A DNA stretch of 64,000 bases from Bilabrum cf. latius (Eukaryota). The stretch covers positions 806,001-870,000 of the forward strand of contig OZ237761.1 of the NCBI GenBank assembly GCA_965178125.1, written 5' to 3'. Positions 6,433 to 58,756 of the stretch are shown one piece after another (position 1 is the first letter of the stretch; every line of letters begins with the position of its first letter). The notes beneath the pieces are model-generated. The model saw nothing but the letters and a program-made list of their open reading frames with translations, had not been told where the DNA came from and did no database searches. Position numbers and translations under genes: made by a program.

Positions 6433-7710
6433 ATGAATAAAGTTGAGGTATGGCACTCGTGTGCCGCCGCGCTCCTGAGAGGGGGGCGCTTGCGTACTCT
6501 CCGGGTGGGGCATTCACATCCCTCCAATCTGCTCGATTGGCTGTCACTCGCAGCAGCAAGGGCTCTTGCTGATGGAATCATTTCCACCGTGCAAACCGTT
6601 GAATCAGAACCTACTACTGCATTTGAATTACCCAGCGATGACACTATCATTGGAAGAACTGTGTCAAGCCTCGCAAAAAAGTGCAGAGCTGCGCCTTTGC
6701 CTCGTCCAGTAGCCTTGCTGACGACAAGGGCCCGCCAAGAAGTGGGACATTCCCTCCCTGTATTGCAGGCTACTTCGTCATTCGAACCGTTTGTAGCGTC
6801 TATTCCAGGGGTCGGTGTGGCTGGTGCGATTCCTGCTGGTATCCGAGAGGTTGCTGCTCGAGTTGCAAAATCCAGGAGGCGCAACGGAGGTAAAGCAGCC
6901 GCATCGGCAAACTAGCCTATTCGCATTCTCGTTGAGGCTGGTCCTACGCTGACTGGGCCATGGTACGATAGGCATGCCTCTGCCAGCAGCTCCAGCTCCA
7001 TTTCGGGCTCCATCTCCAGCTCCAGCCACAGGGCCCTCCCCCTCCCCGTGGACGTGCTCCTGCTCACCACGGTGCAGCCTGATGAGGAGCAAGCACCGCC
7101 GGCGCCAGCAGCCATTGACACAGAGATGGCCCAGAGCGCCGCGATGAATCAGGGGCAAGGCAAGGGCACCCCGTCCCATAGTCGCGCGTACATCCGGGAT
7201 GAGGACATCGTGCCACGATCCCCGCTGGGGGCATGGGCAGTAGACCCGGAGCGCCTGCTGGGCGCCTCCTCGGCTTCACCACCACGCGATGCATCCGAAG
7301 CATGGCTGCACCACGTGGTCCAGCCATGCTATCCCGCGATCCAGCTGCCATCAGGGCACCCCCTCGCGGTGCCGGGAGGTGCACAGCACCAGCAGCACCA
7401 GCAGCAGCAGCAGGGCATTCCTCTGGACCGGCCCATCTCCGACCAGCTGTGGGGTGCTGTGGGGCAGGGTCTCGTCGCCGGGCTGGGTCCTGCCGCAGCT
7501 GCTTCGGCGATGTCGGATCGCCGATTGGGAGCGAGCAGCCCCATGGTCCAGGACCAGCAGTGCCAATGGGCCTCCTCTGCCTCCGAGCCGGCCGTGGGCA
7601 CGCCCCGCCCGGGGCCGCTGGCACGGGCACAAGCGCGTGCAGCGGCAACGTGGACGTTCCACGCACTAATGACGCGAGAAGGGCAGAAATTGGCCGGTTT
7701 CGTCGATTAA
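6433..7710 (+). CDS. RibD C-terminal / dihydrofolate-reductase-like pyrimidine reductase family protein
   Basis: ARALADGIISTVQTVESEP, then past TAG 6913 RILVEAGPTL...VDVLLLT (family pattern LVEGGPTL...VDELxLT). Ends in TAA 7708-7710. Confidence 0.62.
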
Positions 7711-7885
7711 CCGGGCGCAAGGCGGGGTCGCATTGGGTGGCAAATTCCGGTTTGGGGTGACGAGCGCTTTGGTGTGCGTTTCCGAAACACAAAACGGCTT
7801 GGTTTGCATCAGCTGGGTCGTGTTTCCCGATATAGCTGCATGTTTGCGTATCTATAATATTCGTACTTGATTGCTACTGCTCACA

Positions 7886-12248: not shown

Positions 12249-14004
12249 TCACAATTCATCGCTCTATGTTGCAGAGCCGTCCTCACTGGAGCCCCCACTG
12301 CTCGTTGCAGGGTCTGCCGAGTGGTCATCACCAGAAGCGCCTCTACCTGGCTTGGCGTCACCCTCGGTGGCCTCCTCTCCGGTGGATTCATCCACATGCG
12401 GCCCTTCATTTCGAGACCCACCGTGGCTTGAAGACTCACCGCTATCCACCGACTTGTTGCCATCACCATCCTCTGTCCCCGTGGATACGCTGGACTCATC
12501 GCCACTGTCGCCGTCAAAGTCCGACACAGAGTCCTTGCGCTTTTCCTCGGCCTAGTTGTCGGTATTTTCGTCCTATACCGTGCCATTTTCCTAGCTCGTA
12601 ACCTTGCTATTGCTCTTGCCTTTGCTCTTGCCTTTGCCTTTGCTGGGGCTCCCCACGGACGTGTTAGTGTCCGCATCCACAGCGGTTGACGGTCCCTCAA
12701 GCCCTGCGTGCTTGCGGACGAAGCGGACGAGAGTGCGCATGTACTGCTGCCCGCCCGCCTTCCAGCTGTCATTGTGCCCCCCTGACTCCACCGTCATCAT
12801 GCTCTTCTTGGCCTCCTTCGTGCCCAGCGCCTTGTACAGGCGGGCTCCCATGATGGGAGGAATGAGCTCATCTGCCAAGCCAGCCACCATGAGCATAGGC
12901 GCGTGGATGCGCGGGGCCATCTCGATGCTGGGGAACTTGAGCCGCAACACCGCGTGCCTCAACTGCCCCAGCACACGGATGATGGGGAACAGCTTAACTG
13001 CCATATCGTCGATGGAAGTGAACGTGTTCTCCACGATGCCCCCGGCCAGCTCGCCGTCCCTCTCCGCGAGCAGCTGCATCGCCACTGCACCGCCCAGCGA
13101 CCGACCAAACACGAATATCCTATCATGGTTGACGTCCTCCCTGGCTTGCAAGTGGTCTAAAGCTGCTCCCGCATCAAGGTAGAGCCCAGCCTCGGTGGGC
13201 TTGCCCTCGCTGTCCCCGTAACCCCTGTATTCGCACATGAGCACGTTGACCGACTTGTGGAAAGCGTTTCGCATGGCCTGCACATTGTCCAGGCGTAGGC
13301 CCATGTCTGCGGGTGAAAGGGGGGGGGGGGGGAGTTGAACTGTGGGCGCACGAGTGCGGGTCAAACTGGGTGGGTCGATGGGACTGGCGACACCAAGCAA
13401 GGACAAGAGGTCGCCCGCTGGCCTTGCTGAACTCACTGCCGGCGTTGCCGTGGTAGAACATGATCGTGGGGGCGAGCTCCGGGGCAATGTCCGACCACAC
13501 GAGCCAGGCATTCGTCTTGATTCCATCCTAGGCCGTAAGCGTGATATTTTCGTAGGGCATGCCTCGGTCCGCAGGCGAGCACATCTGGAGCTGCTTGGGC
13601 AGCGACGATGGCGATCGAAACTGTGGCCCCGGGCTCTCGGGGTGAAACAGGACATTTTCCTGGGTATAGATCATGTAACCTAACCACAGCATGGCCATGC
13701 ACGACATCCATAACAGCATACCCCCAAATTGAAGTGCAGTATCCCACCAGCTTCCACCCGAACTGCTCTCAGCTTCCTCAATCCCAGCTGCTTGAGCCAG
13801 CATGCGCTCTTCTGCCTGCTTCCGAACGGCTTCGCGAGCCATGGCCTGTTCCTCTACCGATAGACTCGAGGCAGAACCACTCATCCTCGTGCGACCTCGT
13901 ACGTCTACTGTTGCTTGTCTAAATCCAGCACTTGATTTTGCACAGCAACTAAGAACCAGTGCAGCCAGAAATACCAGCAGGAGCGATCTTTTAGGCATGT
14001 ACAA
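12249..14004 (-). CDS. ABHD13: Alpha/beta hydrolase ABHD13/BEM46 family with signal peptide, TM segment and C-terminal SDEL
   Basis: YTQENVLFHP, FYHGNAG-N-MG, YRGYGDSEG, FGRSLGGAVA, ENTFTSI, DELIP, GGHND. Intron 13307-13436; TAG at 13528, 12591, 12573, 12552 and 12264; ends QSDEL-TGA. Confidence 0.9.
13307..13436 (-). other. Spliceosomal intron in ABHD13
   Basis: GTGAGT...poly-C TTTCACCCGCAG; splicing restores HGNAGNMG. Confidence 0.88.
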
Positions 14005-15564: not shown

Positions 15565-15726
15565 TCAGCCTGCGACCGCAAACAGCTCCGGTGCGACCTC
15601 AGTTGCCGGGGTTTCCGTTTGCTGTTCCGGTTGCCGATACACGTCGCTTGGATAGCACAGCCGGCCCTTATTGTCTTTTCCCAAACGCCCTTACCATGTG
15701 TGCCGTATAATTACATCATTAAAGCG

Positions 15727-17829
15727 ATGGAATCTCCTGCCTAGAGTGCGGTTACAGCGGCAAAGGAGGGCAATTAGTCACCATCGCTGGCCAGCTTGTC
15801 CGGTTCAGAGCCAGCGATAGGCTCTGAGCCATCCATGGGGTCCACTGCAGACTGGAAAGTCGAGGTCGGTAGCCTAGTTGTGGACCCTCCCACGGTTCGG
15901 GCGATTCGTGCAGAGATTCGGTTTTTCGCAGCGTGCAGACGAGGTCAGACCTCTGGAATTGCACAGTCAATGCTGGAAGAGGGAGCAGGGGCGCCTAAAA
16001 TTGTCGGTTAGGCGCCATTGATTCATAGACGAAGATCAAGAGCTGATCTGATGCAGAGATGGCATGCACTCCTATACACAGAGGCTGTGCTTGAAGGGGC
16101 CATCGCCCCGGACGACGGCAGATCGCACGACAGCGCGGACGCAGGCATTGCGCGTAGAATGTCCTCAAGCAGCGATGCTCCCAGTGATAGTGATCTTCAT
16201 TATTCTGAGGCAGGCCCGATTCATGACGCGAGCCCGGCTGAGACAGGCCGCAGTCGGCTCGCAGCCGGACTTGCCGCCAGCTCGGTTGCCTCGCGCTCTA
16301 TGGCGGCCCCTTCGGCTGACGCCGGCAGGGGCGATCGCTCTGCCGACAACGACAAGGAACTAGGCCTTGCTGTCGGCCACGAGGCTTACGGCGCTCTTAA
16401 GTCCCCTGCCAGCGATGATGACTCCCATGGGGGGGAACCCGGCTTCGTGCCCCCGGATGCCCCCGCCTTGGCCCTCAGAGGCGGGGGGGTGCTCACGGCC
16501 GGGCTTCGATTCAAATCTAGCTGGGCCCGGGAACTGCCTCCAGATTACGGCTTCACTGGGTTGCACCTTGCCTGCCTGTACGGGCGTGTCTCTGCAGCGA
16601 GGCAGCTGGCCAGCCTTGGCGCAGACCCCGCCGCGCCGGACACCGAGGGTCGGGGGGCCGTGCACGCAGCTCTTGCGGCGCGGAAGCCCCGCGCGGCCCA
16701 AGCCCTGCTGCAGGTGTGCGCTCCCAAAGCCGCGATGCAGACTGCCAGTGGAGGCAAGGAGGCAGCGGGCGCGGGATTGCGACCACGATCGCGCACAACT
16801 CTGAGAGGAGCGGCAGGAGGGTCAGGTGCCCCGGAGAGAAGCACAACTGAGAGTGCGCGCGCTGAGACAGGTGCGTCTTCCTATGCCCGCTCCCGCCCGG
16901 GCTCCTCGTCGACGGCGGTGACCAGCCTTCGAGTGCAAGCCGGGGTGCGGAGGGTGGGGCGCAGCGTGCCCGTGTCTGATGCCTCCGTGGCTGCTGCGGC
17001 TGCCTCTCGCCTGCTGCTGCACCGCTGGAGGACCGCTGCTCCAGAGACCGACAGTGGAACCGATCGAGCGGGGTCCTTGGGCAGAGATGCAGCCGGTGGA
17101 GATCTAGATGCGCAGTCTGGATCGGGTGGAGGGGGTCCTTCGTGGGACAGGTACGACCTGCTGGTGCCAGGTATGACGGCTCTCCACGTGGCGGCAGCAG
17201 AGGGTAGTACCGCGGGCTTGAGGATGCTAGTGAGGGCAGGGGCGCCGGTGCATGCAGTCGATGCCCTGGGGCGCACTGCACTGCACTGTGCGGCGGCATC
17301 GGGGCGGCGGCGGCAGGCGCTGCTGCTGGTCGCTCTGTGTGGGGATGCAGGCTTGCTTGCGGCGAGGGACGCGAGTGGGAGGACAGCGATGCAGCTGGCG
17401 GCGGGGAGGGGCTACGTCGGGGTCTGTGATGCATTGGCGGCCATGGCTGGTGCTGCTGCGGGTGGGGTGCTCGTGCGGTCCATCGTGGGGAAGGAGAGCA
17501 CGGGCGGGATTGTTGCCTAGAAGGGGATAGACATGAAGGAGAGCACGGGCGGGATTGTTGCCTAGAAGGGGACAGACATGAAGGAGAGCACGGGCGGGAT
17601 TGTTGCCTAGAAGGGGACAGACAGGAAGGAGAGCACGGGCGGGATTGTTGCCTAGAAGGGGATAGACATGAAGGAGGTAGGGCCGGTGGCAGCGGGTACG
17701 GGATCTGGCGCGGAGGGGCATGCGGCGGGTGCGGGGGCAGCCAAGACCAGGCGCGGGCGGCGACGATCGTCTGTAGCAGGGGCAGCGATGCGGGAGGCTG
17801 CTGCAAAGGCCTCTGGTGCATTGGATTGA
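15727..17829 (+). CDS. Ankyrin-repeat protein
   Basis: GFTGLHLACLYG, GRGAVHAA, GMTALHVAAAEG, GRTALHCAAASG, GRTAMQLAAGRG. One frame from ATG 15727 to TGA 17827 with 7 TAGs. Confidence 0.8.
17491..17676 (+). repeat. 45-bp tandem repeat x4, coding KESTGGIVA[TAG]KG(I/T)D(M/R)
   Basis: Unit aaggagagcacgggcgggattgttgcctagaagggga(t/c)agaca(t/g)g occurs four times with small variations. Confidence 0.95.
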
Positions 17830-18359: not shown

Positions 18360-21300
18360 TCACTTCCCCCCATGGGCCCCCTTCCGACCGCCGTGTTTCC
18401 GGCCGCTGCCTCCCCCACCTCGATGATGCCTGCCGCTAACATGCTGCCGGCGGCGGCCGCCTGCGCCGCTGCCATGCCCGGGTCCGCGCTTTGTCTGAGA
18501 CACTTCCTCCTCTTCCTCTTCTTCTCCTGCCTCTTCGTCTTCCCCCGCCTCATGGTCACCTGCCCCTTCTTCTCTGTCATCGCCCTCAGACAGCAAGCCG
18601 GGCCCCAGAGCACCCTCCCCCTGTCTTTGCCCGGCATCGTACCCACCACCGAACCCAAACCCACCCCCACCACCCATTCCACCACCCATCACAGCTGCAG
18701 GATCAGCATACTAATATGCACCGCCCATCCCCATCCCCATGCCCATCCCCATGCCCATCCCCATGCCCATGCCCATACCCATGCCCATACCCATCTGGCC
18801 TTGACCCGCCGCGATGCCCGGAGTTGCGTAGTACCCGGCAGGATCTGGACCCATCTGGCCCATGCCCATCTGGCCCATCATTCCAGGAAAACCGCCGCCC
18901 CAGGGCGCGGCCTGCATCCCCCCATATCCCGTCATGTCCCCTGGGGCCCCGAAGGAAGGCAGCGAGCCCTCCCCCCGCTGCGCCTGCTCTGCCGCCCTGG
19001 CTGCATAGGGCCCCACGGACGCCTGCATGGCTGCGTACTGCATGGCAGCTGCGTGTGCGGCCACCTCCTCGGTCTTGCCCTCGTCTGCTCCCGCATCTGC
19101 ACCCGACTCGCCCCCTTCTTCACCTCCGTGCCCGTGCCCGTGCCCGTGGCCCTTCTCGGTCAGCGCCGCCTGCAGCGCAGGATGGCTGGCCTCGGGATGT
19201 GCCGCGCCGGCCCCAGGCATGGAACCCATAGGCTGGGGAACACCTCCTGCAGCGCCCATCATGGCGGGCGGCCCATGTCCCGGGGCCAGCGGCAGCACGC
19301 CGGCCTGCATCTGCTGCTGCACGGCCATTACAGCGGACTGCTGCAGGGACGTGTAGTACGGAGCGTACTATGGACTGACGTACCTCTTGGGCGCAGGCAG
19401 GCGTCCCTTGCTCGCCTTGAGCGACCCAACGGCTCCCTCGAAGATGGCCTCCTTCTCCTAAAAGTGGTGCAGCAGGTTGTGCCACAGCTGCTGCTTGGCC
19501 AGCACCTTCGTGTTGCCCACCACCACCAGCCCGAAACGGGCCCGGGTGAGAGCCACGTTCAGCCGCCGCGGGTCCGCCAGGAAACCGATGCCCTGTTTCT
19601 CGTTGGAGCGCACGCAGGACAAGATGATGTAGTCCTTCTCCCGCCCCTGGAAGCTGTCCACACTCGCGATCTCCAGGCCCTCGTACCTCTCCGCCGCCAG
19701 GCTGGCCTGCGTGTCGAAGTACACCTGCAGGTGCGTGCGCTGGCCCTCGTAGGGCGTGATCACGCCGATCTGGGTGGCCCGGAGGCCGGCGCGCAGCATG
19801 GCAGTCACCAGCCTCTCCACCGATGCGGCCTCTCCCCTGTTTAGGTACGATGTGCCCGACGAGGACATCTCCTCGAGGGCGTTGCACGTGAGGAACAGCA
19901 TGGGCTGGGAGGCATCGGGGAAGGGCAGCGAGAGCTCGTGCCTCTCTCGCTCCGCTACCAGCACGCCATCCTGCAGCGAGCCCTCGTAAAACGTGTTCGA
20001 AGGAAACTCCGAGAGGCAGGGGTGCATGCGGTACTGCACCTGCAGCCGCAAGGGACGCACGCCCAAAAAGATCGCGCGCTCGAACAGGGAATACTGCAGG
20101 CCGGCTTTGGCCGCGCGCTTCGAGACCACGACGGGCCCGAGCTGGCAGTGGTCCCCAACCATGACCAGCTGCTGCGCCCCCAGCACGCAGGGAATCAGCG
20201 CCTCGGGCTCGGGCGCCTGCGTGGCCTCGTCGATCAGCACGAACTGGAAGCGGCGATTCCAGAGCCGACCGTCAGCCGCCGTCGAGCAAGTGCAGCAAAC
20301 CACCTCGGCTCGGTCCAGGATGCGCTCCTCGGTGCGGCGCAAGAGCCTTCGGAACTTCTGCGAGTCTGCGGGAGACAGCTGCCCGCCTCGCTCCGCCTTA
20401 AGCTGGGCCAGCTTCTGCAGTGGGGTAAGCTTGGGATCCCCTTTGCCCCCCTTTGCTCCCTTGCTTCCTTTGCCACCCTTGGCACCCTTGCCGCCTCTGC
20501 CCCCCTTGTCCTTGGGCCCTCTCTTGCCCCCGCCCTTCTTGCCCCCACCCCGCCCCTCCGAATCGGGCCCGCCGGTGGCCGTGACGCCCTGCAGGGCAGC
20601 CGCAGTCTGAGTCAGCTTACCGCCGGCCGCGGTGCCCAGCAGGCCCCGCGTGGCCTGAAATCCGGCAAAGGCCCCAGCTGCCCCCGCCCCTGCCCCGCTA
20701 GCCGCCCCCATGGCCACCTCAGGGATGACGTCCCTCTCCAGCTCGTCGATGCCCTCCACCTGCAGCGCCATGCGGTGCAGAGAGAGGTGCTCCACGTCGC
20801 TCGCCACGTCCTCGCGGGAGCGGGCCGTGACCCGCACCACCCTCAGCCCCGTCTTCTCGATCTTGGCGGTCAGGTGGTCCACAGCCACGTTCGAGGGTGC
20901 TACCACCAGCACAGGCCCCATGCGGCGCTGCACCATGTGGTACACGATCGTGGCACTCGTCACAGTCTTTCCCGTGCCCGGCGGGCCCTAGATGAGGCTC
21001 AGCGGCTGCTGCAGCACCTGGGCCACTGCCTGCTCCTGGGAGGTGTTGAGCTCGGGCAGCCCGGGGGCAGAGAAGCTCGAGGGAAGCGGCATGGCCACCC
21101 GGAGCCTCTCCACCGCGTGCCCCAGCAGCACCTCGTACAGGTGCTCCGAGATCGAGTCCTCGTCCTGCGCGAACCTCCGGAGGGCCTTTCGCATGCGCTC
21201 GTAGGTCACCCCGCGCCACACCACCTCCACCTCGAAGCCGGTCGTCACCGCCTCGATGGGCGCCCCTTTCGGAGGGCGGGCATCGGCCCCGCTGGCACCC

Positions 21301-43941: not shown

Positions 43942-46900
43942 TCATCCAACCGCCCCCTACCCCAGCGTGGTGCCCCGCACCGTTGTCTCAGAGGCACTCA
44001 GGGCCAGCGATGCGCCGGGCCTGCCCCCCTCCCACTCCGCCCTCGCGAGCGGCCTGGCCCCCTGCATGCCGTGCAGCCTCTCGATCAGGTCGTTGTGGGT
44101 CAGGCCCAGGTGCACCCCATCCCCGTCCCCATCTCGCCCCTCCTTCTGACCCGGTAGGAAAGTCCCCCCAGTCCCCTTGCCCGTGCCCCCGCCCCCTTCC
44201 TCGGCCGCTCTCGCCCTCGAAGACACCCCCCCGCCCTCCTGCACCAGCCCCTGCCAGAGGGCAAGCAGGGCCTGCACACCGGCCGGCTTCAGGGGACGAA
44301 CCACGGCACACGCAGCGGAGCCACCGAGCAGGTGTTCCGGTTTGGGGTGCATGACGAGCCCCGTGCGGGGGCAGCACCACGGCTTTCCCTCCGCTGCAGC
44401 GGCCTCTGCTTCCGCTTTCCTCTCCGCTGCGTCAGTGGCGCGCGCGTTGGAGGCCCCGGCAGAGGGGACCTTGGCCCTGCCTGGGATGGCCATCTCGGCA
44501 GGTGCCCGCCCCGGCAGCACGCTCCCAGTGGGCAGCAGCGCCACCACCAGCGAGCGGCCCCTCAGCCGAAGCGCCTCTCCCAGACCGTCGCTGGGAGACA
44601 CGGCCGCAGTGCGCTGCCTGGGCTTGCCCACCGCCCGCGAAACGTCTGCAGCCTCCTTGGCCCCTGCTCCCGCCCCGATCAGCACCAGGGCAAAATCGTC
44701 CGAGGTCTGCGCCGTGGCGTTAGTGCCACCAGGGAGGGACCTCGAGGCACGGACCCGTCTGGCTGCCCCGTCGTGCAGCTTGCGGTGCAGCTCCATCGCC
44801 CGCCTGGCAGAGAGGGCGACATCCGTGGCTCGGCCGGTGCGTGGGTCGCAGGAGCCCCCCACGGTGGTCACCTGCCCCCCACACTGCTTCAGGCTCGACT
44901 CCGCCCCAAGCCTGTGGGCTGCCTGCGGCTCCACCAGCAGCGCGTTGGGCACCCTGTTGCTGGCAGGCAGCCGCACCACGGTAGCGCCTCCCATGGCCCC
45001 GCGGTAGATCAACTTCCCATCGCGAAAGGCGAGGAACAGAGGAGCCGCGGTGACCCGGTATTTCCTGGCGATGCCTGGCGATCGAGCCAGCTCCACGCGC
45101 CGGAGCACGAAAGGAGAGCGGCCCCCCGTGCCATCGCCGCCCGCTGTCTCCTCGTCGGCCCGCCCCCCCACGGCCTTGGAGGCAGTGACCTGCATCAGAC
45201 TCGCAGCCAGGTCCGGATCGCCACCGTGCAGCCGTGCCATCGTGGACTGCACCTTTTCCATCACCCGGATGGCCGCCCTGCTCGCGGGCTCGTCGCCGCG
45301 CACGCATGCCACCAGCACGACCCGACCGGCCAGCTGCCCCGACTGCAGCCAGCGTTGCAGCCTGGGCTCGTCGGGTGCCTCGGGGACGGCCAGCAGCGTG
45401 CTGGCAGCCCGAGCAGCAGCCCCGCCCTCGCTGGCACTGCGCGCGTTATACCGCCCTGATGCCTGCCGCATGCTGACTGGCTTGGGCAGCGCGGGGTGCA
45501 CCTGCGTGAGTCTGGCCTTCATCTCGATCTCACCCACCCACTTGCCGCCGACCCACGAAGCACCCCTTGCCGTGCCGTACCCGTCCGACGGATCCGCCAG
45601 GGCACGATCCATGGCCTCTCGCGCTACTTGGGCCGTCGGTATCCCCCGCTTCCCCCCACCCGGTCCCATAGCAGACCCTCCGAGCAGACGCGCACCGCCG
45701 GCACTGCCGCCAAACGTGTCCCCCAGCCCCAGGGCCTCAGATGCCTTCGTCTCAGCGAGCCCGCCGAAGCCAGCTGAGCCCGCCCGACTGGCCCCCCTTC
45801 CGCTACCGACCCCAGTGCTGCCTCTGGCCCTACTGGCTCCCGCCCCATGCAGAGCCTGGGTGAGTCGCAGCGTGGCCTCCGCAGCCTCTTTGGCCACATC
45901 TTTCCTCGCCCTCTCGATAGCGGCATCTAGCGCGCCATCCCTGTCCCGCATCGTAAACACGGGGTCGTCCCGCAGGGCACCCCCACTGCCTCTGGTCCTG
46001 GCCCCTCCCCCTGCCATGGCCAGGGCAACCTCGAACGGATCCGGCCCCTCCAGCCCCGCCTCGATGCCCGCCTGCGTGCGCTGCCCCTCCCACCTAGGCA
46101 CCTCCTGCAGCGTCCTCAGCCGGGCCTGCTCCTTCCACCCGGGCTCGTTGTGCGGCGCCACTCGCAGGTTCCGCACGCCCTCCATGGCCTCGTCCAGCTC
46201 TTTGGTGAGAGCCGCGAGGGCGCCCCCTGCCACTCGACCAGCTGGGGGCACCACCCCGCCCCGCCTGTCCCGTGCAACCTTCCTGCTCAGCGGGCGGGTG
46301 GACAGCTTGCCAGATCCTACAAGGGATGATGGTGATAGTGATGCCCCGTGCGGTCCTCGCCCCCTCCCCCGCCCGCCTGCAGTCTGCAGCTGCACCAGCG
46401 TGCGCCGTGGCACAGGAGGCCCCTGCAGGTCCACCCGCTCCCTGTACCCGCATTGGAAATGGTGCTTGAGCCCGTCGCACTCGAAGTGCACACGGATGTC
46501 CCCCCGGCCACGGAACACCAGCTGCATGTGTTTGTTCAGCTGGATCTGCACCGGCCCCCGGGGCGGCTCACCGGCCCCAGCCTGCTTTGGATCCCAAGCC
46601 CAGGCATGGAGGTGGGCGCCGGTGGAGCCGCGCTGCTTGGGCCCGAGAACGCTGGTGAGGACAGCTCCTTTCTTAGACAGAACCAGCTTGGTTCCTGGCT
46701 CGTGCTGCTTACCCTTGAGCCCACACACGGCGAAACCAGTGCATTCGCTGCTGATGCTCGCCAGCAGCGGCCCTTGGTTGCTGGTGTTCGGGGCACTTCC
46801 AATCGGCATCACAGGAGGCCGCTTGAGGGCTATCACGCCCCTACCTGCCTATGCGAGCTTCCTCTTGTTCCTTATTCGGGCCTTTTCAACCGAAGCGACG

Positions 46901-47148
46901 TACGGTGCAGTGTCAGCCGGGGGTGGTAGCTACTCATCCCTTGCCCGCAGCTGCCCGCGCTCACTTTTCTCTCCCGCAGGATCGTCAAAAAACATGTGCT
47001 ACTTTCTATGGGCTACGCTTCCTGCGTACACTAGGGCAGCCACATACTGCTGACCGTCAGAGCAGCTCGGATAGAACACCAAGCCTTCGCTAAATTCATT
47101 GATTCTAACGCCCGGAGTGCCATCCGGATAGTCAAAGGATAGCGCCAT
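43942..47148 (-). CDS. Large hypothetical protein; FAM194-like N-terminus and thioredoxin-like segment
   Basis: FDYPDG..., VFYPS..., WAWD...VQIQLNKHMQLVF...IRVHFEC (FAM194-like); IARKYRVTAAPLFLAFRDGKLIY (Trx-like). 4 TAGs; TGA 43942. Confidence 0.55.
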
Positions 47149-47717
47149 ATCACTTGTGTATTGGTATTCGAAATATACCGCGACAATCAACCATGCAATC
47201 CGAACGCAGGTGCAGCTGAATGTGTCCGTTTGTGTGTGTTCTTGGGTGCACTGCACTGATACGTGTGCATCTAGAGCAGGATTCTATTCCTTGCTTGCTT
47301 GCTTGATGGTCAAGTCATACTTGCTCTGAACCATGTGGTGGACAATATAATTGTCCTTAGATCCCAGGACAATGAGAGCCTGAAACCGTCTGCTTTGCAT
47401 AGTATCGTCTGCTGGATTCACTTCCAGGCTAGCGGCGGGTTGTCAGGCTTATTGTCCGTTGATATGCACCGTTGCGGCCAGGATTCAGTCTTACAATCAT
47501 AATCTTGTGCGTGAGCTAGAGCATGCAAATTGAGCAGTATGGTAGATGCATGAAAGGGGTAATGGGAAGCAGTCAAGCATCGCAGCCAGTGCGATTCACC
47601 ACCCTGCCGACTAGGGCCTGTTGTCTTGCGCGTTCTCATGTAAAGGCATACTGGTAGTGATCTAGAAGCTATGCAAGAGCGCTTCGCTTGGCGCTGGGCG
47701 TTTTCACTAAGGAGTAC

Positions 47718-47909
47718 TCATGCTGAGTTCGGGCGCAGAAGCAGCGCCCTGATTCCGTATCGCTCGTAGTACATAATATCAAAGCTAAGAGTGCAAGCGG
47801 CTAAAAAGAGGGTTATAGTCGCCGGCACACTCCCCTTTGCCTGAAATAGTTTAGAGGCGTGCGGGATGCGACCAAGTCTGGCAGCTAGGCCAGCTCCTAA
47901 CCGGAACAT
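47718..47909 (-). CDS. Possible small protein or first exon with mitochondrial-presequence-like N-terminus
   Basis: MFRLGAGLAARLGRIPHASKLF... followed by a hydrophobic stretch; lies head-to-head with the next gene like other pairs. 3' structure unresolved. Confidence 0.3.
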   Translation of the reverse strand: MFRLGAGLAARLGRIPHASKLFQAKGSVPATITLFLAACTLSFDIMYYERYGIRALLLRPNSA

Positions 47910-48112
47910 TGCTGCCGAACTCCGCGTGCCGCGGCGATTTCATGACCAGACCGCCGCCCCGTCACTTTTCACCAGTCGGTTGTTTGATAGTGATGGCGAC
48001 AGCTAGTGTAAGTCGTTCGTTCCTTTACAGTGCATTCGTTTGATACTGTGTAGTACTCACGTGTTGCGTTGCGGCTGGCCGCTGGGCGCCCATTGCAACA
48101 TCCAAGGAGGCT

Positions 48113-51100
48113 ATGCTTCCATTGCTGATACCAGAGCGATCGCAGATCCAATCAAACCAAGGCGTTACCGGCGGTCATGAATCGGCAGCCCAGTACGAGC
48201 ATAACCCAATGAAGCATGGTAGCTCTGGCAGTGGCAAGGACGAGACCCGCGTGCAGATCAAGGATGCATCGTTCTCGTGCTGTTGCATCACAAGCACGAC
48301 GCTTGTTGTGCTCGCCATCGTCGGCGCTGCCATTGCGGTCGGTCTGGTCCTCGCGCTTGATGCCAGCGACGACGGAGGCGAAAGCGATACGATCCTATCC
48401 GGGGCTGACCTCAGTAGCGACACGCTGTCCCTTAGTGCATGCCAGACAGCCGTCGCGTCAGGTGCGTTCCTCCATTATGTCAGCGTTCGGTACGATGTTG
48501 AGGGCAGCGAAATCACGTGCAGTGACGCGGAGACTATCAACAACGCAACGTCGGATGTGTTCGGCGTCAATGCGAACGAAATCCTGGTCACGATCGTCGA
48601 GGATGGCGGTCGTAGGCTCGTTGGCGATGTCCGAACAGGGCGAGATTTGCAAGCGGCGGCAAGCACCGTGATCCAGCACATTCTTGCCGAGAGCGAGGAA
48701 GAGGCAGACTTGATTGCGTCAAGGGTGGTCGAAGCTGTGCAGGACGGCACCATCGAGGACGCGCTGGGCAGCGACTTCCCCCTGGCCACCTTCACCGTCA
48801 CCGAGGACCAGGACGGCGGCTTCGTGACGCAAGGCACCTTGGACGGGGGTACACCTGCTTCTATCAGCCCTTCACCTGCCGTAGCAGCTACGACGTCTCC
48901 AGATGCTTCATCCACTCCGACGGTGTCTCCAGCTGCTTCATCCACTCCGACGGTGTCTCCAGATGCTTCATCCACCCCGACGGTGTCTCCAGCTGCTTCA
49001 TCCACCCCGACGGTGTCTCCAGATGCTTCATCCACCCCGACGGTGTCTCCAGATGCTTCATCCACCCCGACGGTGTCTCCAGATGCTTCATCCACCCCGA
49101 CGGTGTCTCCAGATGCTTCATCCACCCCGACGGTGTCTCCAGATGCTTCATCCACCCCGACGGTGTCTCCAGATGCTTCATCCACCCCGACGGTGTCTCC
49201 AGATGCTTCATCCACCCCGACGGTGTCTCCAGATGCTTCATCCACCCCGACGGTGTCTCCAGATGCTTCATCCACCCCGACGGTGTCTCCAGATGCTTCA
49301 TCCACCCCGACGGTGTCTCCAGATGCTTCATCCACCCCGACGGTGTCTCCAGATGCTTCATCCACCCCGACGGTGTCTCCAGATGCTTCATCCACCCCGA
49401 CGGTGTCTCCAGATGCTTCATCCACCCCGACGGTGTCTCCAGCTGCTTCATCCACTCCGACGGCAAGTGCCGGCGTGCCAACTACGCCATCCGAGTCGGT
49501 CACACCGTCTGCTGCCAGCAGCCCATCCACGAGCCCGAGCCCCAGCTCAAGCACCAGCGCAACCCCATCGATATCGATGGGCAGCAGCCCATCCACGAGC
49601 CCCAGCCCATCCACGAGCCCGAGCACCAGCGCGACCCCGTCAGTATCGCCTTCGATCACACCGTCAACTTCCGCGGTAAGTTTGCGTGTGCAGTCCCACG
49701 TAGATGCCACGTATTGCGAGTGCTGCACGCCCACAGGCGCTTGGCTTGTACCGATCTTCTCATATCGTCCTCGCAGTCCCCATCTGCGTCTCCTACCGCG
49801 CTGGGGCAAATCATCGTTGCGACCAGAGACGTCACTGATCCAAGTAGGGCCATTAGCATCAACGTCACATTCACTGACTACATCACGGATGAAGTTCTGG
49901 GAGCTTCTATCGTGACCGATGCGCAGCCAGTGTTCCAGCAAATGTCCAGGGGCACTGATGTCTACGCGGCCACCATCACGAGTGCAGGGGTCTACGACGT
50001 AGGCCCTAGCATCGCCGTCAACCCCTCGAACGGTGGGGTACTTGGCATACCATCCCTGCCGACTAGCAGCAACCGTGACATTACGTACGTGGTGATACAG
50101 AGTCAAGTTATCGCGGGATCAGATCACGATGCAAGAGCCACCGCAGGGACAGAAGCGGCGACTTTCGCAGAAGCAGTCCCAAATACCAACAGCTTTGATT
50201 TTAGCTAGAGGTGCTCGAGGGAGTCCAGTAACTCAGCTGTGTGCAGCCTTGGGGGGACCTCGATGGAATGGCTCAGCAACCTCTAGGTGAATTTCAACAA
50301 GTTTTCTACCCTCTCTGTGGAGGACCGCAACTCATCTTGCAAGGACGGATCCGTGACCGACCCAGATGACTGCATCGTACGGTTGTCGGTGAGAGCCTCC
50401 CTGCTTGGCGTTGACCAACAAAGCCCTTCGTTTCCTGCACTGGCGCTACGTGGCTATGATCTCGCTCGCAGACTTCCTACTCCCATGCATCGGCCTGCCA
50501 TCCTGCAGCTGCCCCTCTTTGCATGCATTCATCACACCGCAGATCCTCATGGACAACTACCCGTACCGAAAGACGTCAGCGGTTGCTAATGCGGATGACC
50601 TCACCCTAGACGACGAGAACTTTGACGAGGACATCGCGGTGAGGGGCGACTTCACTCTGGAGCGAGTCGCGATCGCTGGCGACATCACCGGGATCCGCAT
50701 GCCATCCATGTTTGACTTCGTCGCGTCGCCTTCTGCTGCCATTGTCGACGTGAACACGGGTGAGGTGACTGTGCTCAGAGCGCACGAGGCGGTGACTCAG
50801 GCAACAAGGGACCACGTTGATGCCACCGGTGCCGTTTGTTCGGAGTGGGCGATCGGGAGCATCAACATCTCAGATGGGAGTGTTGGCCTCTACAACGAGA
50901 CTGGCATGAATGTGGTGCTGGAGGAGTTCTTCGTGACCAACTGGTGGGAGGGGTACGTCTGGAACGGGACAAATCCCACGAGCCGCAACACCTCGTTCGT
51001 GCCCTCTGGCGTGTCAACCTTCCCGTTCTTGTGCTCGGTGCCGCCCTCCGCGCTGGAGGCCAACCTGGACCTGCTTGTCGCGGCGAACCACCAAGACAAC

Positions 51101-51535
51101 ATGGACCTCATCGCCAACCCAACGGGTCTGGCCCAGTGGCTTTCGGCGTACATCGTGCCGGAAAGGTTTTCCAGCACTCGGCGGAACGACATCGCGGAGA
51201 TGGAAAAGAGGGACAGGGTCGAGGTGCGGCGCCGTGCTCTGCGAGGAGGCGAGACTGCCACTGCTACATCTAGTGGAGATAGTCAAAACCAGGACCCGAG
51301 CAGCGTCCCCGAAGACGTGCAGGCACTCCGCCTGCTGGGCAACAGAGACCCGATCAGCGGGCGCATGCTCATGGATGTGGACGACCTGCCCGACCATGCT
51401 CCGCGGGTCGAGCGAGAGGGAAGTGGAGATCATCATGATGGCCCCGATGCCGAGGTGAAGAGGGAGCACATGTTCCACGGGAGGGACCCGATGCGGCCTT
51501 GGATGACGGCTGATGGGAAGGGCCTGCTGGTATGA
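48113..51535 (+). CDS. Type II membrane mucin-like surface glycoprotein
   Basis: N-terminal TM (LVVLAIVGAAIAVGLVLAL), GRRL-containing domain, (SPDASSTPTV)n stalk. Introns 49676-49776 and 50389-50542; TAG at 50206 and near 50284; TGA 51533. The start could be ATG 48209. Confidence 0.75.
48896..49463 (+). repeat. 30-bp coding tandem repeat, about 19 copies (SPDASSTPTV)
   Basis: Unit tctccag(a/c)tgcttcatccac(c/t)ccgacggtg, nearly perfect. Confidence 0.97.
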
Positions 51536-52001
51536 TGCGAATGTGCCGGTTTCGACTGCCGGGGGTGCGGCTCAGGAGCGCGGGTGGAGCGGGTGGTACA
51601 TTGTCCACCAGCGCTGCGGGAGGGCCCCGTCAGCTGACGGCCGGACCTCCTGCAATGTGTCAGGGGCAGTGTGCATCCCAGCCTCAGGATGTGATTTGTG
51701 CAGTAGCCGCTGCAGGCATTTCGGGGCTTGTTTTGTACATTTGCTTTCTCGTTGAAATCGTCGTGCACAATCCTCTTGCCCTAATGAAGGCTCCGAGTCC
51801 GGGGATCCATCCCCAATTGCATTCGGTAAACACCGCGACTGGCCTGCATTTTGAGTTGGTTTCGGCTGCGCTACAACAGAAGCATCGCTTACAAAGGGAG
51901 CCTAACGCACTTGACAGTGCGAGGGGGCGGCCCGGGGGGGGGCGGTTTGGACAAAGGTTTGCGCAGAAATATAGACCATACAAATACGCGGCGTACACAA
52001 T

Positions 52002-55000
52002 TCACTTCTTCTGCTAGCTCGTGATCCTATCTCCCAGTGCAAGAGCCACTCCCTGCGTCTTGGCACGGATCCGGATGTGCCCTCGCACGGACCCATCCTC
52101 CATCTTCATCACGCTCAGGTTCGCAAGCGCGTCCTCCCCAAAGGTTGACTTGGCGTACAGGTTAGCCGCCAGAAACTCCGAGTCTCCCTGCAGAGCGTCC
52201 ATGGGCGTGAGGCACTGCATGGAGGTGATCTTCACGATGTGAGCCAGGTACTCCTGCAGGGACCGCAGGTTGGTGTTCACCGACACCTTGTTCTCCCACT
52301 CGAACTCGGCCCACATCCCGCGGAAGGCGATGGCCTCGCAGTAGGCTGGGTGGATGTAGTCCATAATGTCGATGCGCACCTCGCTCAGGTGCACCACGTG
52401 CTTGTCGAAGAAGCTCCTCGGCTTGTCGTACACCACCGTGCCGTAGATGTACCCGCTCTCGGTGCTGCTGATCTTCACAGAGGCACGCACTGCGCGGCTC
52501 TCGCCCGGGCCCAGCGTCACGACGGGCGGCCTCTCGACGAGCTTGAGCTCCCCCACCGTGCCCAGCTCCACGCTCACGTTGGTCAGCGTCCGGTCCGACC
52601 TGTTCAGCAGGGCCATGTCCAGCACGATGTCGTAGTCGTGCACCGTCACGCAGGCCTCCACGTACACCGCGTCCGAGAACCCGGTCAGCTGGTGCACCCT
52701 CGACAGCCTCGCCCCGAAATCGTCCTGCGAGGAGGCAGTAGCCCGCTGCACCTCGGCGTCGTCGTCCAGCGCGAGCTCCATCTGTGAAGGGCCGCCGGCC
52801 GCCGCGGCGCCCTTGCCCCTCAGCTGGCGCACTACGATGACGTCGTCCGGCTGCGTCACCACCTACAGGGACGTGCGCCCGCCCACCGAGCGCCCGCCGA
52901 GCCTGGTGGTGGCCCTCCCGTTGGAGGCACCCGCCCCGCTGGCCGGCCCCTGCTCGTCCTCCTGGTTTTCCTTCGATTCCACGACGGCAGACGGACGCTG
53001 CGAGTAACCCGGCAGCCGCGCGTTCGCCCCCGAGGGCCCCTGCTCCCCGCCCTGCTGCTCCGAGGCTTCGCTCTCCGCATGCCGGGCCGCCAGCTCCTCC
53101 AGCGCGGCCGCGTCTGCGATCAGTCCCGCCATGCCTGCCTCCCCGCCGCTCGCCGCAGTGGAGGACCCGCTGCCGCCCATGCCCCTCTAGTGGTTCTTCT
53201 GGGCGCGCTCCTTGAGGATCTGTGCCTTGGCCTTGGAGATGCGCTGGAAGGACAGCAGCTCCTTGAAGGCCGCCTCGCAGCCGTCCAGCAGCACCGGGGT
53301 CAGAGCCTCTCTGGTCTCAGGCTCGCCCAGGATGCGGATGCAGGCCACCACGTGCTCGAAGGCGTCCTGGTCCATGCGCAGAGTGCGAGCCGAGGATGCG
53401 GCCGCGCCCGAGGAGCCGCCGTCGCTCGACACTCCGGTGGCACCCACGTCTGCCGCCAGCCCGGCCACTGCCGCGGCCTTGTCGCCCTGGTGCTGCTGCT
53501 GACCCACCTCCAGCACCGCCGTCATCACCAGCAGAGCGTCCACCACTGCCGACTTGGCCTCAGCCGACGCCGGCCCATGGGCTTGCCCGGCCCTAAGCGC
53601 GAGCTTGGTCAGCGTGGAGGCCAGCGCAGAGGCCAAGTACCAGTTGCCGCGCCCCTTGAGCAGGAGCCGCCGCAGCGCAGGCCCGGACGAGGTGCGGGCC
53701 GTGTCAGCTGCCGCCTGCTGCGCCGCGGATGCCTCAGTCATGGCCGACTGCGTGGCGTAGCTCCCGTCCGCCAGGATCTTGGGCCCCTTGGAGGCCACAG
53801 GGGCGGTCGACGACTCGCCACCCTCGGCTGGGCCAGCTGCGCCGTCCTCCTCCTCGCCCCCCTCTGCAGCAGGGGCCACCACGGGTGCAGCCCTCTCGTC
53901 TCTGTGCGGCTCGGTGAGCGGCAGCGAGCCCAGCGTGTCCCGGATGGAGGCCAGCGCCCCCTGAATGGCCTCCTTGCTCTCGGCGAACTGGCCCATCACC
54001 CACAGAGCCACGCGCATCACCTCCGTGTGCTGCACGTCTGCCACTGTGTTCTCCAGTCGGGCCAGCAGGTCGGCTCGCATGTGCGGCTGAGTCTCTGCCA
54101 GCTGCCTCACGAGGTGCGCCACGTCCAGCGCCGACTCGGCGTCCACATCGGGGGAAGACACGAACGAGAGCAGGGCAGGCAGCACGTGGGTGGCCACACC
54201 GGGGAAACGCACGGCGCACTGGTGGAGTGCCTGCACCAGGGCGCGGTGGTAGGCCTGGGCGTTGCGCAGCGCATCGGACCCACCTCTACGCTTGCGAGAG
54301 CTGCTGCCGGCGCCTGCCGCCGCGTCCGATGTCTCCTCGACTGCCTTGGCTTCTGCAACGGCCTCTGCCGCCCCCATTGCCTCCTTCCGCAGGAGGCCCG
54401 CGACCTCGTCCACGTTCCTCTAAGACACCAGCCGCATGGCCAGGGAGAGAGCGGCCTTGCGCACCCCCAGGTGCTCCGTCCCGAGGGCCCGCAGCACCTC
54501 CATGACCTGCTCCCGGAGCACACGGGCGTGCCTGGGCAGCAGCTGGCCCAGTCGCTCGATGACCACGAGGCGCACGTTGTTGTCCGTGCCTCGCTTAAGC
54601 AGACGGGTCCAAGCCTGCGTGGCAGCTCGCACCGCCGTGGGTGCAGAGGACATGGCCACAAGCGCTGAGGCCGCCTCGAAGGCAACCGCCGCCGATTCGC
54701 TCTCCAGCAGCTGGAAGATGGGGCCGATGAAGCGGGCCTTCATGGCCGGATCCTTGCGGCAGGTGCGGCGGGCCAGCTCGAGCAGAGCCAGCTGAAAGCC
54801 CTCCCCGTACGCCTCCACCTCGGATGCGTGCTCCACGTAAAACTCGAGAGCCTTGGCCTGGTCGCAGTCGAACAGCATGATGAACGCGTTGCGACGGGCA
54901 GCCGGGTCCTTTTCCTCCCTTATGAACTTTGCGATGTCCTCCGCGGCATCTGGGAATGCTGCTGCTCCAAAGTTCCGCACAATGGAGTGCACCGTGAGGA

Positions 55001-55578
55001 CGGCATGCCGACGCACGTACGGGTGGCCGTGTCTCAGATTGTCCCGAACGGGCTCGATGAGCTCGTGCACTAAGTCGCTCTCCCTGATTTTGCAAAGGAA
55101 TCGCAATGTGCAGCCGCGCACATACTCGTTCGGGTGCTTGAGATCTTCTCTCAAGGAGTTGCTGCGATGGTAGAGAGGACGGGTGCCAAGCTATTCACAA
55201 GTGGGGCTGCTGCGGGTCTGCCGCCCGCGGCACTTGCTATTCGCATCAAAAGGCATACATCAGCACAATGACTCACCAGACGAGAATAAGTTCTTGCAAT
55301 AGCTTGCCATCCGCGCCACGTTTCCGGACTGCTTCCCAGTACAACATCAGCATCTTTTTCAAGGCATGGTCCTCGACAGTGACGCAGCCCCTAATCACAT
55401 CCATTAATATTCCCGACATGTCCACGCCAGCCAGCATTGCCATCAAAGCGCGGCGCAGCCCGTCCGTCTTCGCAAACACATCCGGATCCGCTAGAAGCTG
55501 CTTCACCTCATCTACTGTCGCAACCTCGTAGCTCGCTGGCTACGCAACAATAAAGGTGCAGCTATCTTCCAACGCCAT
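52002..55578 (-). CDS. COPB1: Coatomer subunit beta (beta-COP)
   Basis: [43 protein letters not shown] (intron 55162-55276), ILADGSYATQSA, QLTGFSDAVYVEA, FRGMWAEFEWENKV, FLAANLYAKSTFGEDALANLS, ends LGDRITS[TAG]QKK-TGA. TAG at 55540, 54420, 53187, 52863 and 52014. Confidence 0.97.
55162..55276 (-). other. Spliceosomal intron in beta-COP
   Basis: GTGAGT...CTACCATCGCAG; splicing restores ILVCNSL. Confidence 0.92.
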
Positions 55579-55740
55579 GGCCGTATCACTTCTCCAGAGA
55601 AGGGGTTCGTGGCAGAGCAAGCCCAATAAAAAATAACTTAGCGTCTCCAAAATCTTGTTTAATACAACACATAACGTTACAATTATACTATTCGGAGCAA
55701 TAAACAATCCGCCGGAACGATTCACAACGTCCGCTGTACC

Positions 55741-56271
55741 ATGGGACTGTACGACATGAGCCCTTCGGCAACAGTCGCTCGAGATGTATTTGAGACTATC
55801 GAGTATGGCGTTTACTTTGGGATTTCGATCCCTCTTCTGATGAATACAACCCACTGGTTGCAGCTTGCAAGGAAACACGGCAGCTTGCAACGAGGCTACC
55901 GTGCCTTGTAGCAGTCTTCGCCAAGATTGCTTCACTTTGATCGCGGGTTTCTGTCTGCCCGTCTGCTGGCACTGAATGAACCACGTTTGTTTCGTGGGAC
56001 GGTGGCAACGAGTATCGGGGTAGGCAGTTTGCTTCTCGCAGTTCGTACGAGCGAAACTGTGTGTGGATACGCGTACATCGCAGCACTAAAGCCTTCAAAT
56101 CCAATGCACCCGAAAGATGATAACAAGGTGGCGCGGCTTGCAGGTGCTTTTACGGGGTCGGGGCTGTACGCATATCGCAAGTTTGGCCTGACGATGGCGG
56201 GAGCTGGGACGATGCTTAGTGTAGGCATACTATCTGCGGTTATCCAGAAGTTTGGGGCGAGTCGTCAATAA
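55741..56271 (+). CDS. Small membrane protein, Tim17/Tim22/Tim23-family-like
   Basis: ATG 55741, TAG 55909, KDDNKVARLAGAFTGSGLYAYRKFG...; ends in TAA. Confidence 0.55.
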
Positions 56272-56300
56272 TGTATGGTCACAACGCAGCCACGCGGGAG

Positions 56301-58756
56301 TTATGTGGCGGGCACATCCCCGAACCACCGAGAGGGCAGGCACTGCAGCACAGCTGCGGCTGCCTCGAGTGGCACGGGAAGTTCGCTCTCTGCTGCACCA
56401 TGCCAGTGGCTACCGAGACCCACTTCTCGCACCGAGATATTCCTTGGTCTGGCCTTATCCGTGCTGCACTTCCCCTTGGCTCGGATCACCGAAGATGCCT
56501 CCTGGTCGCGCTCATGGTGGGCCTCTTCTCCCGCGAACAGACCCACCACCACCTCCAGCGGGATGGGCCTGCCGCTGCCTTGCGCGGGCTCGGGGGAGTC
56601 GCTGGTGGCTGTCCTCTCCAAGGTGGCGGTGGCCATGATACGCACCTCCAGCGAGGAGCCCTTGGTGGATGCATCGGCATCTGCACGAGGTACTGGCAGG
56701 TCCAGCACCCACCGGATGGCGGTGTCCACCTCCGACCCTCCAGCGCCGCCCCTGGCTGGCACCGCAGCACAGCTCAGCACTGAACCCGCCGTGGTTTTCG
56801 CCCCGCGAGGAGTCCCGTGAACGGATGCGCCCGCAAATTCAGCGCGGGCCGACACGAGCTGCACTCGGCCACTGCCCTGCCCGAGGCCTTCGTCCTTTGG
56901 CAGAGCAGGCAGCGTGCGGCCGGCGCTGTCATCCGAGTCGCTGGGCCGGCCACTGCGCCGGCCAGCTTTGAGACCGCCCAGCGGCAGCATGAGGTCCACC
57001 TAGGCTCGCACGCTAGCGCTGGTGCTGGCACTGGTGCCCCTAAGGATGCCCCTCAGCTGTGCAGGAAAAAGCTTGAGCTTCACCAGGCAGTTCACTGCCG
57101 ATGACTGTCGTGGGGACCCGGACCCAGCCGCGACAGAGCTGCGACTAGAGGTGGACCAACCTTTGATCTTCGCTGCACCGGAAGCAACCGCCGGGGGTTC
57201 GCCCAGGCCAGCGCCAGCCTTTGCGCCCTGGTGGCCTGCCAGCAGCAGCACGTGGGCCGGGCACGAGGACGACGAAGGAGCAGAGGGCGAGTGCGATGGC
57301 GATGTAGCGGGCCCTGGGCGCGGTGGCAGCTTGAGGGCTGCGTATACCCCGCCATGCGCAAGGGGCTTGGTGCGGATGGCGGCACCGGACCGATCTGTGC
57401 GCAGAGCACCGTCACCAAGTGGCCATGCAGCCATGGTGTCCGTGCCTGGGCGAGCCAGCCTAGCCTCATGCAGCGGCACAGTTCCCTCTCGCCTGACGGC
57501 TAGGACCCAGCTCGACCTGAGTGCTGGCAGCGCCGTGAGAAAGGCATAGGCTGCTGCAGCACGCACCTGCCCAGAGGCCGACAGCCTGTACTGCGTCTGT
57601 CTGCGCACCAGCAGAGTTGGCTCGTCGGGCACTTGCGATGCAGGAGTATCGGCTTGAGTGCTCGAACCTGCGTGCGCCGCCCCGCTGCTGGCTGATAGTG
57701 CGTCAGAGGGCCCCCCTCGGCGGGCGAGGGCATCCGGGTGGGCATCGCTGCCGCTTGCACTGCTGCTGTTGCCCTGTTGGCCTGAGCCAGCGGCAGCCGG
57801 CGAGGGTGCCTGCGATGCACCGCCAGTGAAGTCGGCACTTTGCAGCTCGGGTTCCGCGCTTGCTAGACCTGCAGCATCGCCTTGACTGCTGGTTGCATCG
57901 ATCGGTGCCGTGGTGTCTGGCCCCGCAGGGACTGGTGCGAGAGTCGATGGCGCCCCGTCTAGTAGGCTGGATCCAGCAGAGTCGCGGGAGGCTGGCAGCC
58001 TGGCCCGGGCGTTGTGAACCATGGCAGCGACTCGGCCGCGGCGGAGTCTAGAGGCCACGGGGGACTTGCTGCTGCCGTGCTGCTGCCACTCTGCTCGAAA
58101 TGACAGGTCTGAATCTGAGGCTCGAGCCCTCGTCAACGCAGCCTCGGCTACTGCCGCCGTGCTGCGCCGCTCCCCGCCCGGCACTGCCTCGGTAGCTGCG
58201 CTCGCTACAGCCGCATACCCCCCAGCAGTTTCAAGATGCGACGGGCACTCGTCAAACGATGTGCTACCTGGTGCTATGGAGCTCGAGAGTCCCGAGAATG
58301 AGTTGAGCGCAAGCGAGTTGTCTTTTGCACGGATCGAGATGCCCGCACATGATAAATCGGACGCGCCACTATGATGAGCCTTTCCATAAGCTAGCCTATG
58401 CATGACTCGAAGTACGGCGGGTCGCAAAGACAGCAACACGGGTACAGACGTGGACGACTAGCCCCCGCAAACCTGCTCGATCGCCATCGCAATCGCAAAC
58501 CCGAGCCGACGCGCGGCCTCCAAGCTGGCAGCCTGTACCTCCACAGCTAGCTCCTTATCAGCCTGCCCCAGTTGTTGCAAGACCCTAGGGCCAGAAATGC
58601 TGCGGTTTCTTTGATTGTCAGCGAGGTAAACCACGGTCTAATGTGGTATTCAAGGTCTCGCACCGGCTCGCCAACGGCAACGACTCACCTAATTACTGGT
58701 AACGCTTCTACTATGATGCGCCGCACTGGCCGTAACTGTACGACACACGCGTTCAT
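56301..58756 (-). CDS. Hypothetical protein, possibly with a mu-homology-like beta-rich C-terminal domain
   Basis: Exon 58689-58756, intron 58585-58688 (GTGAGT...CCCTAG, phase 2), then one frame through TAG 58458 and 57000 to TAA 56301. The domain call is weak. Confidence 0.5.

Follow-up and report, generated by a model that had tools for sequence, protein, structure and literature searches.

The window analysed here is the whole 64-kb stretch between positions 806,001 and 870,000 of contig OZ237761.1, numbered from its first letter, and the subject of the analysis is the genetic code of its genes, namely the reading of TAG as a sense codon and of TAA as a terminator. The GC content of the window was 62% overall and lay between 59 and 65% throughout. 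Its long frames were found to encode typical eukaryotic nuclear proteins, as evidenced by Pfam and PDB matches. The gene set comprises UPF1, coatomer beta, a DDX11/CHL1-type helicase, PIG-V and PGAP1, and further a peroxisomal multifunctional enzyme, a DOT1-like methyltransferase, a FAM194-like protein and an ankyrin protein. The window further contains two short introns of the form GTGAGT...CAG. The window is cellular nuclear DNA and belongs neither to a virus nor to a prokaryote. No tRNA genes and no Rfam matches were found within the 64 kb, and the gene of the release factor eRF1 is absent from them. The coordinates of the main features are collected in Table 1.

Table 1. Position, strand and support of the features discussed in the text (positions of the window)
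Feature	Position	Strand	Support
UPF1 gene, 1538 codons, 4 in-frame TAG, TGA stop	18360-22976	-	Pfam UPF1_Zn_bind, AAA_11, AAA_12; PDB human UPF1, E = 1e-245
In-frame TAG, UPF1 residue 663, motif LI[Q]GPPGTGKT	20988-20990	-	Alignment to human UPF1
TAA terminator of the DOT1-like methyltransferase	26311-26313	-	Homologue C-termini
Terminal coding segment of the DOT1-like methyltransferase, without in-frame TAG	26314-26865	-	Pfam PF08123 DOT1, E = 1.1e-8; 63 homologues
Coatomer beta exon 2, in-frame TAGs, TGA stop at 52002-52004	52002-55161	-	PDB coatomer beta, E = 1e-182
Coatomer beta intron, 115 nt, GTGAGT...CAG	55162-55276	-	Joint in X1, X2, X3 contigs
Coatomer beta exon 1, start MALEDSC..., one in-frame TAG	55277-55578	-	Pfam Adaptin_N positions 7-75; spliced translation
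TAA stop of the gene of a small membrane-like protein, 176 aa (coding sequence 55741-56268)	56269-56271	+	Homologue P0184
TAA stop of a lineage-specific gene of 728 aa (coding sequence 56304-58487; 5' intron 58600-58688)	56301-56303	-	Coding score 54.7
TAA closing the open reading frame 6106-7707	7708-7710	+	Unverified open reading frame, plausible gene
Peroxisomal multifunctional enzyme type 2 (MFE2) gene	58879-61203	+	Pfam and PDB matches; one in-frame TAG; ...AKL then TGA

The best named protein matches came from oomycetes, other stramenopiles and chlorarachniophytes, at 36-54% identity. In the coatomer tree, the window sequence clustered only with sequences that carry no species name, and the tree gives the lineage no placement. 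The only ciliates among the homologues were two Blepharisma methyltransferases (ranks 34 and 41, 42-44% identity). A compact, GC-rich genome is not suggestive of a ciliate.

Stop triplets in the gene models

When TAG was read as a residue, the longest open reading frames (ORFs) grew from ~2.9 kb to ~4.7 kb; treating TAA in this way did not change their length. A set of 24 gene models with 16,021 codons was evaluated, 16 of them with homology or transcript-contig support and eight based on coding potential alone. In frame, TAG was present 76 times, and neither TAA nor TGA was found. The same genes contained 114 TAG, 25 TAA and 252 TGA in frame 2, and 97, 49 and 243, respectively, in frame 3. 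At least one in-frame TAG was carried by 21 of the 24 models. The terminal stops were TGA in 21 models and TAA in three, and four additional weak ORFs also end in TGA. The initial annotation had reported no internal in-frame TAA in any gene model and about 25 genes ending in TGA. The former was borne out by these counts, and the latter corresponds to the 21 models together with the four weak ORFs.

The ratio of CAA to CAG in the 24 models was 104/442 (0.24). If TAA were read like TAG, this ratio would predict 17.9 in-frame TAA against none observed (P = 1.7e-8). For the 16 supported genes only, 11.6 were expected and again none was observed (P = 9e-6). With 0/16,021 codons, sense TAA has a 95% upper bound of ~2 per 10,000 codons, to be compared with 47 per 10,000 for TAG.

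Since the models were bounded by TAA and TGA as stops, a test independent of ORFs was carried out, in which the stop triplets of all six frames were retained when the 40 codons on each side exceeded a score in a codon log-odds model. At a score of 6 bits, 22 of 821 TAG, 0 of 357 TAA and 0 of 1431 TGA triplets were recovered. At 4 bits the numbers were 32, 1 and 3, the lone TAA being antisense to coatomer beta, where the strand is fixed by homology.

In-frame TAG and the residue it encodes

Alignments to proteins of other organisms suggest that UAG is read as glutamine. The TAG at residue 663 of UPF1 occupies a position that is Gln in human UPF1 (PDB chains 2wjv, 2xzo, 2gjk, 6ej5 and 9qwn), and a TAG of coatomer beta stands at the Q of VHQLTGFSD, where mouse coatomer has Q as well. 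Comparison of the coatomer TAG sites with 120 distant homologues placed none of them in Gln-dominated columns, which is uninformative rather than contrary. The TAGs of DDX11, MFE2, an aminotransferase and a ParB-like gene were located at unconserved positions relative to solved structures, and the Fra10Ac1-like ORF gave no PDB match. An estimate of the encoded residue from the composition of the neighbours around TAG was dropped, as the values for different residues cannot be compared and poly-Q runs distort them.

The coatomer TAGs were also present, with no differing letter, in the contigs of the runs X1, X2 and X3 (two studies). In these contigs the coatomer intron is spliced out, whereas it is retained in a 38-kb contig of X7. 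The label of X1, X2 and X3 as RNA is a guess only; they were taken as derived from complementary DNA because their contigs skip two GT..AG stretches and the X7 contig keeps the coatomer intron.

The last TAG of coatomer beta (52014-52016) is found three codons before the end of the gene, ...ITS[TAG]QKK-TGA, and this end aligns with those of relatives, which read ...ITAHQKV or close with QKI or QKR. Since the QKK behind the TAG aligns with the relatives, this TAG is translated. It is not a former stop, as the relatives carry K or H at this position. A TAG within five codons of the terminal TGA was detected in three of the 24 genes, against 0.57 expected (12249-13655, 43942-47400 and 52002-52016, all on the minus strand). 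The two late TAGs outside coatomer beta may represent former TAG stops at which translation now continues.

In the ankyrin-repeat gene, four copies of the 15-residue unit KESTGGIVA[TAG]KG.. were observed at 17518-17660 on the plus strand. Each unit has its own in-frame TAG, and thus the TAG was copied along with the repeat.

The decisive evidence on the residue was provided by a close relative, represented by two metagenome contigs (L001 and L002, ~4 kb), in which the same pattern was found. Its amino-acid identity with the window was 72-89% in coatomer, and the FAM194-like protein reached 60%. The compared parts of the relative contain 14 in-frame TAG, and neither TAA nor TGA was present in frame in 1,248 aligned codons. 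At the 18 TAG sites that could be aligned between window and relative, the opposite codon was CAG or CAA in ten cases, AAG in three, TAG in one and another codon in four; Leu and Ser were each found opposite TAG at one of the 18 sites. As a control, 80 metagenome coatomer loci were inspected: residue-aligned in-frame TAG occurred only in L001 and L002, and 69 loci were free of any in-frame stop. No tRNA genes were found in the two contigs of the relative.

In L002 (1-2335) coatomer beta and the FAM194-like gene share one strand, the latter being located ~270 bp downstream of the former, while in the window (43942-55578) ~4.6 kb lie between both genes, including the plus-strand genes 48113-49915 and 50405-51535.

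TAA as a terminator

Four genes ending in TAA had been proposed in the initial annotation. The coordinates of the four triplets are correct, with TAA at 7708-7710 and 56269-56271 on the plus strand, and TTA, the complement of a minus-strand TAA, at 26311-26313 and 56301-56303. Three of the genes are credible (26311, 56269 and 56301), whereas the TAA at 7708 closes an unverified ORF.

The methyltransferase protein ends with ...ATVYLQEKVL. Ten of 20 homologues end within two residues of this point, including all six closest ones (48-82% identity), and the other ten carry unconserved tails. The earlier statement that this gene ends naturally at TAA is therefore in agreement with the C-termini of its closest homologues. 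The next in-frame stop is a TGA at 26287, seven codons further, followed by a second TGA. Given that a read-through of the TAA would add just seven residues, the case is carried mainly by the 82%-identical relative, which ends at the same residue.

A perfect tandem repeat of 51 bp (26124-26331, 4.1 copies, 100% matches) spans the end of the methyltransferase gene and its 3' flank. It duplicates the last codons, the TAA and the two in-frame TGAs into the flank, and it looks like a very recent expansion.

For the small membrane-like protein of 176 aa, one clear homologue, P0184 (39% identity, 124 aa), was found among 1.8 billion representatives, and its end lies within one residue of the TAA at 56269. 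Behind this TAA the frame remains open for 182 codons, the next in-frame TAA or TGA being located at 56818. Contigs of the runs X3 and X2 (two studies) stop at 56459 and 56474, well before 56818, which is a weak hint only. The 728-aa gene on the opposite strand is covered by a spliced X1 contig, in which 55735-58599 is joined to 58689-58736. The homologue search for this gene gave no match, leaving its C-terminus without independent support, and an in-frame TGA follows 11 codons past its TAA.

These two genes are convergent and, as had been stated, their stops lie 29 bp apart (56272-56300). One X1 contig traverses both genes (55735-58736), and X2 and X3 contigs beginning in the plus-strand gene extend 190-205 nt beyond its TAA and stop within the last codons of the minus-strand gene. 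The 3' ends of the two genes appear to overlap.

The ORF closed by the TAA at 7708 (6106-7710, plus strand) has 534 codons, among them two TAGs and low-complexity runs of Ser and Gln. Its coding scores are mostly negative, and a Pfam search with it gave no match. By Markov simulation, however, the open frame is improbable as a chance event (P = 2.5e-4 for that frame), a simulated window being expected to hold 0.145 ORFs of this kind. It represents a fast-evolving gene or, alternatively, the shadow of something else.

TGA ends could be verified as well. The C-terminus of coatomer beta aligns with its relatives, which confirms the TGA end, and the TGA end of MFE2 was taken as verified on the basis of its C-terminal -AKL, presumably a peroxisomal targeting signal of type 1. 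The four independently verified C-termini thus comprise two at TGA (coatomer, MFE2) and two at TAA, and none of the four is at TAG, although the sample is small.

Proposed code, alternatives and known systems

The most probable explanation, to which a probability of about 0.88 was assigned, is that this protist and at least one close relative use a nuclear code in which UAG is glutamine, with UAA and UGA as the sole terminators. The claim that UAG and UAA are uncoupled and that UAA was kept as a stop is upheld by the counts, the chance tests, the two homologue-matched TAA ends, the spliced contigs and the relative. Several points weigh against it. The credible TAA terminators are three only, with homologue support for two, and TGA follows within seven and 11 codons of the TAA at 26311 and 56301, respectively, so that length alone may be compatible with read-through at these two sites. 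Poly(A) sites are only weakly indicated by the points where contigs end, and the RNA label of the runs is a guess. For most models TAA served as a stop when the boundaries were set, a bias that is addressed by the flank test, but this test recovers only 22-32 of the in-frame TAGs. A rare or context-dependent sense UAA below ~2 per 10,000 codons may remain compatible with the counts. Furthermore, the sample consists of 64 kb plus 4 kb of the relative only, and the tRNA and eRF1 genes lie outside the window, which leaves the mechanism discussed below as one deduced by analogy.

It could be argued that UAA was reassigned together with UAG (UAR = Gln, NCBI table 6), that GC bias makes sense TAA so rare that a 64-kb sample misses it, and that the TAA "stops" are sense codons ahead of the real TGA. 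The 62% GC content, the low use of A-ending codons (CAA/CAG 0.24) and the TGA found within seven and 11 codons of two of the three TAA ends would fit such a code. However, at this very CAA/CAG ratio the 17.9 expected in-frame TAA are all missing (P = 1.7e-8), and the two other frames of these genes contain the triplet 25 and 49 times. Moreover, the end of P0184 lies no more than one residue from the TAA at 56269, behind which 182 codons are open, and the six closest methyltransferase homologues end within one residue of the TAA of the methyltransferase gene in the window. This joint reassignment was therefore considered very improbable. A context-dependent code of the Condylostoma or Blastocrithidia type is unlikely too, although to a lesser degree. 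Here, UAA would occasionally be sense, or UAG would still terminate some genes near the 3' ends of mRNAs. The excess of late TAGs (3/24 genes against 0.57 expected) could reflect such part-time termination, and only four C-termini, two at TGA and two at TAA, were independently verified. Against this stand the late TAG of coatomer beta, which is translated as judged by the aligned QKK, and the lack of in-frame TAA both in the 16,021 codons of the window and in the 1,248 aligned codons of the relative. No verified C-terminus is at TAG; this codon was encountered solely in sense positions, and TAA solely as a terminator.

The third alternative, a standard code in which the in-frame TAGs are artefacts of hidden introns, pseudogenes, RNA editing or assembly errors, is hardly credible. 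Introns do exist, and one apparent TAG of coatomer beta (residue 22 of the unspliced ORF) was in fact intronic. On the other hand, the TAGs are retained unchanged in spliced contigs of X1, X2 and X3 (two studies), TAG occurs at residues conserved in distant species, and an independently assembled relative has the same pattern. In addition, the frames are interrupted only by TAG and never by TAA or TGA.

For the code with UAG as glutamine and UAA as a stop, a mechanism can be proposed by analogy, following the argument made in the accessible part of the Iotanema study (PMC5304391). UAG would be read by a tRNA-Gln with anticodon CUA, which is one mutation away from tRNA-Gln(CUG), the reader of the dominant CAG codon in this genome. 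The C34 of such a tRNA would be unable to pair with the A of UAA. As a tRNA that reads UAG only needs the anticodon CUA and does not pair with UAA, the latter would be left to eRF1. The release factor itself may have a weakened recognition of the third-position G, or it may be outcompeted at UAG. Residues of eRF1 that read the third-position G include T32 and L69 (human numbering), and in the same accessible part the conserved eRF1 motifs are described as unchanged in a rhizarian, while Iotanema eRF1 has T32G (PMC5304391). As the rhizarian precedent keeps the conserved motifs, competition by a suppressor tRNA is as open a route as the loss of UAG recognition by eRF1 that was inferred in the initial annotation. 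The predominance of UGA as a terminator is attributed to the GC bias. In a GC-rich genome TAA, and not TAG, should be the rarest stop, and thus the simple capture of a vanishing codon fails to explain the choice of UAG. The GC-rich setting favours the route from tRNA-Gln(CUG) to tRNA-Gln(CUA).

The initial annotation had also stated that UAA and UAG mostly move together and that a UAG-only reassignment to Gln, as in Iotanema, is rare. This is correct but outdated, since the accessible part of a further study lists additional UAG-only reassignments in Protocruzia, phyllopharyngean ciliates, Scotinosphaera and a rhizarian (PMC11687900). As far as the accessible parts of both sources extend, UAG is Gln with UAA and UGA as stops in the fornicate Iotanema spirale (PMC5304391), and UAG alone is Gln in Protocruzia tuzeti and two phyllopharyngean ciliate lineages (PMC11687900). 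UAG alone is Leu in the rhizarian exLh and in ciliates, and Ser in Scotinosphaera (PMC5304391; PMC11687900). UAR is Gln in many ciliates, some ulvophytes, hexamitin diplomonads, Streblomastix and Amoeboaphelidium (PMC11687900).

The closest likeness is with Iotanema, for which the part of the study at hand describes the same codon table, UAG in frame and never terminal, no in-frame UAA or UGA, and a predicted tRNA-Gln(CUA) logic (PMC5304391). According to the same source, Iotanema is an anaerobic metamonad represented by a transcriptome only, in which UAA ends 104 of 119 genes, whereas the genome studied here has 62% GC and TGA ends 21 of 24 genes (PMC5304391). The organism of the window also has the gene of a peroxisome-type beta-oxidation enzyme. 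Such an enzyme would be unexpected in an anaerobic fornicate. Protocruzia and the phyllopharyngeans share UAG = Gln and UAA as a stop, as described in the available part of that study (PMC11687900), but no ciliate is among the closest homologues of the window genes; relative to the UAG-only ciliates, the origin would be independent. With the rhizarian exLh and Scotinosphaera, as presented in the portions of the sources at hand, the window shares the uncoupling of UAG from UAA and termination at UAA and UGA (PMC5304391; PMC11687900). It differs from exLh (Leu) and Scotinosphaera (Ser) in the residue, since here TAG pairs with CAG or CAA at 10/18 sites and with Leu and Ser at one each. With the UAR = Gln codes it shares UAG = Gln, but UAA is not sense here (0 against ~18 expected).

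The type of code, which follows the pattern of NCBI table 15, is therefore rare but already described, while the lineage looks new. Whether it represents an independent and unpublished origin of UAG = Gln with UAA as a stop, in a GC-rich, intron-poor lineage that is neither ciliate nor metamonad and includes at least two species, can only be proposed tentatively, at somewhat less than even odds. No report of a GC-rich non-ciliate with this code was found in a literature search that had supplements and most subscription-journal papers outside its scope. If the independent origin is true, it would be an instance for which genomic DNA is available, making the suppressor tRNA and eRF1 directly readable. 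Few nuclear codes part UAG from UAA, and such codes are informative on the question whether both codons must change jointly on account of eRF1 and tRNA wobble. Unusual in this case are the GC-rich genome, TGA instead of TAA as the main terminator, and the availability of genomic DNA and of a relative with the same code. On the practical side, gene calling with the standard code truncates most genes of this organism, given that 21 of the 24 models contain in-frame TAG.

Two further genes showed particular features. An ORF for a mucin-like membrane protein (48113-49915, plus strand) contains ~18 tandem copies of PDASSTPTVS; an antisense frame that ends in TAA (48475-50118) outscores it in the codon model, and strand and stop are ambiguous at this locus. 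In the DDX11-like gene (28832-31858, minus strand), the N-terminal helicase motif (...PYPIQ...LESPTGT...) was found in the terminal part of another ORF located upstream (31958-32926, minus strand), and therefore at least one intron is present in this gene.

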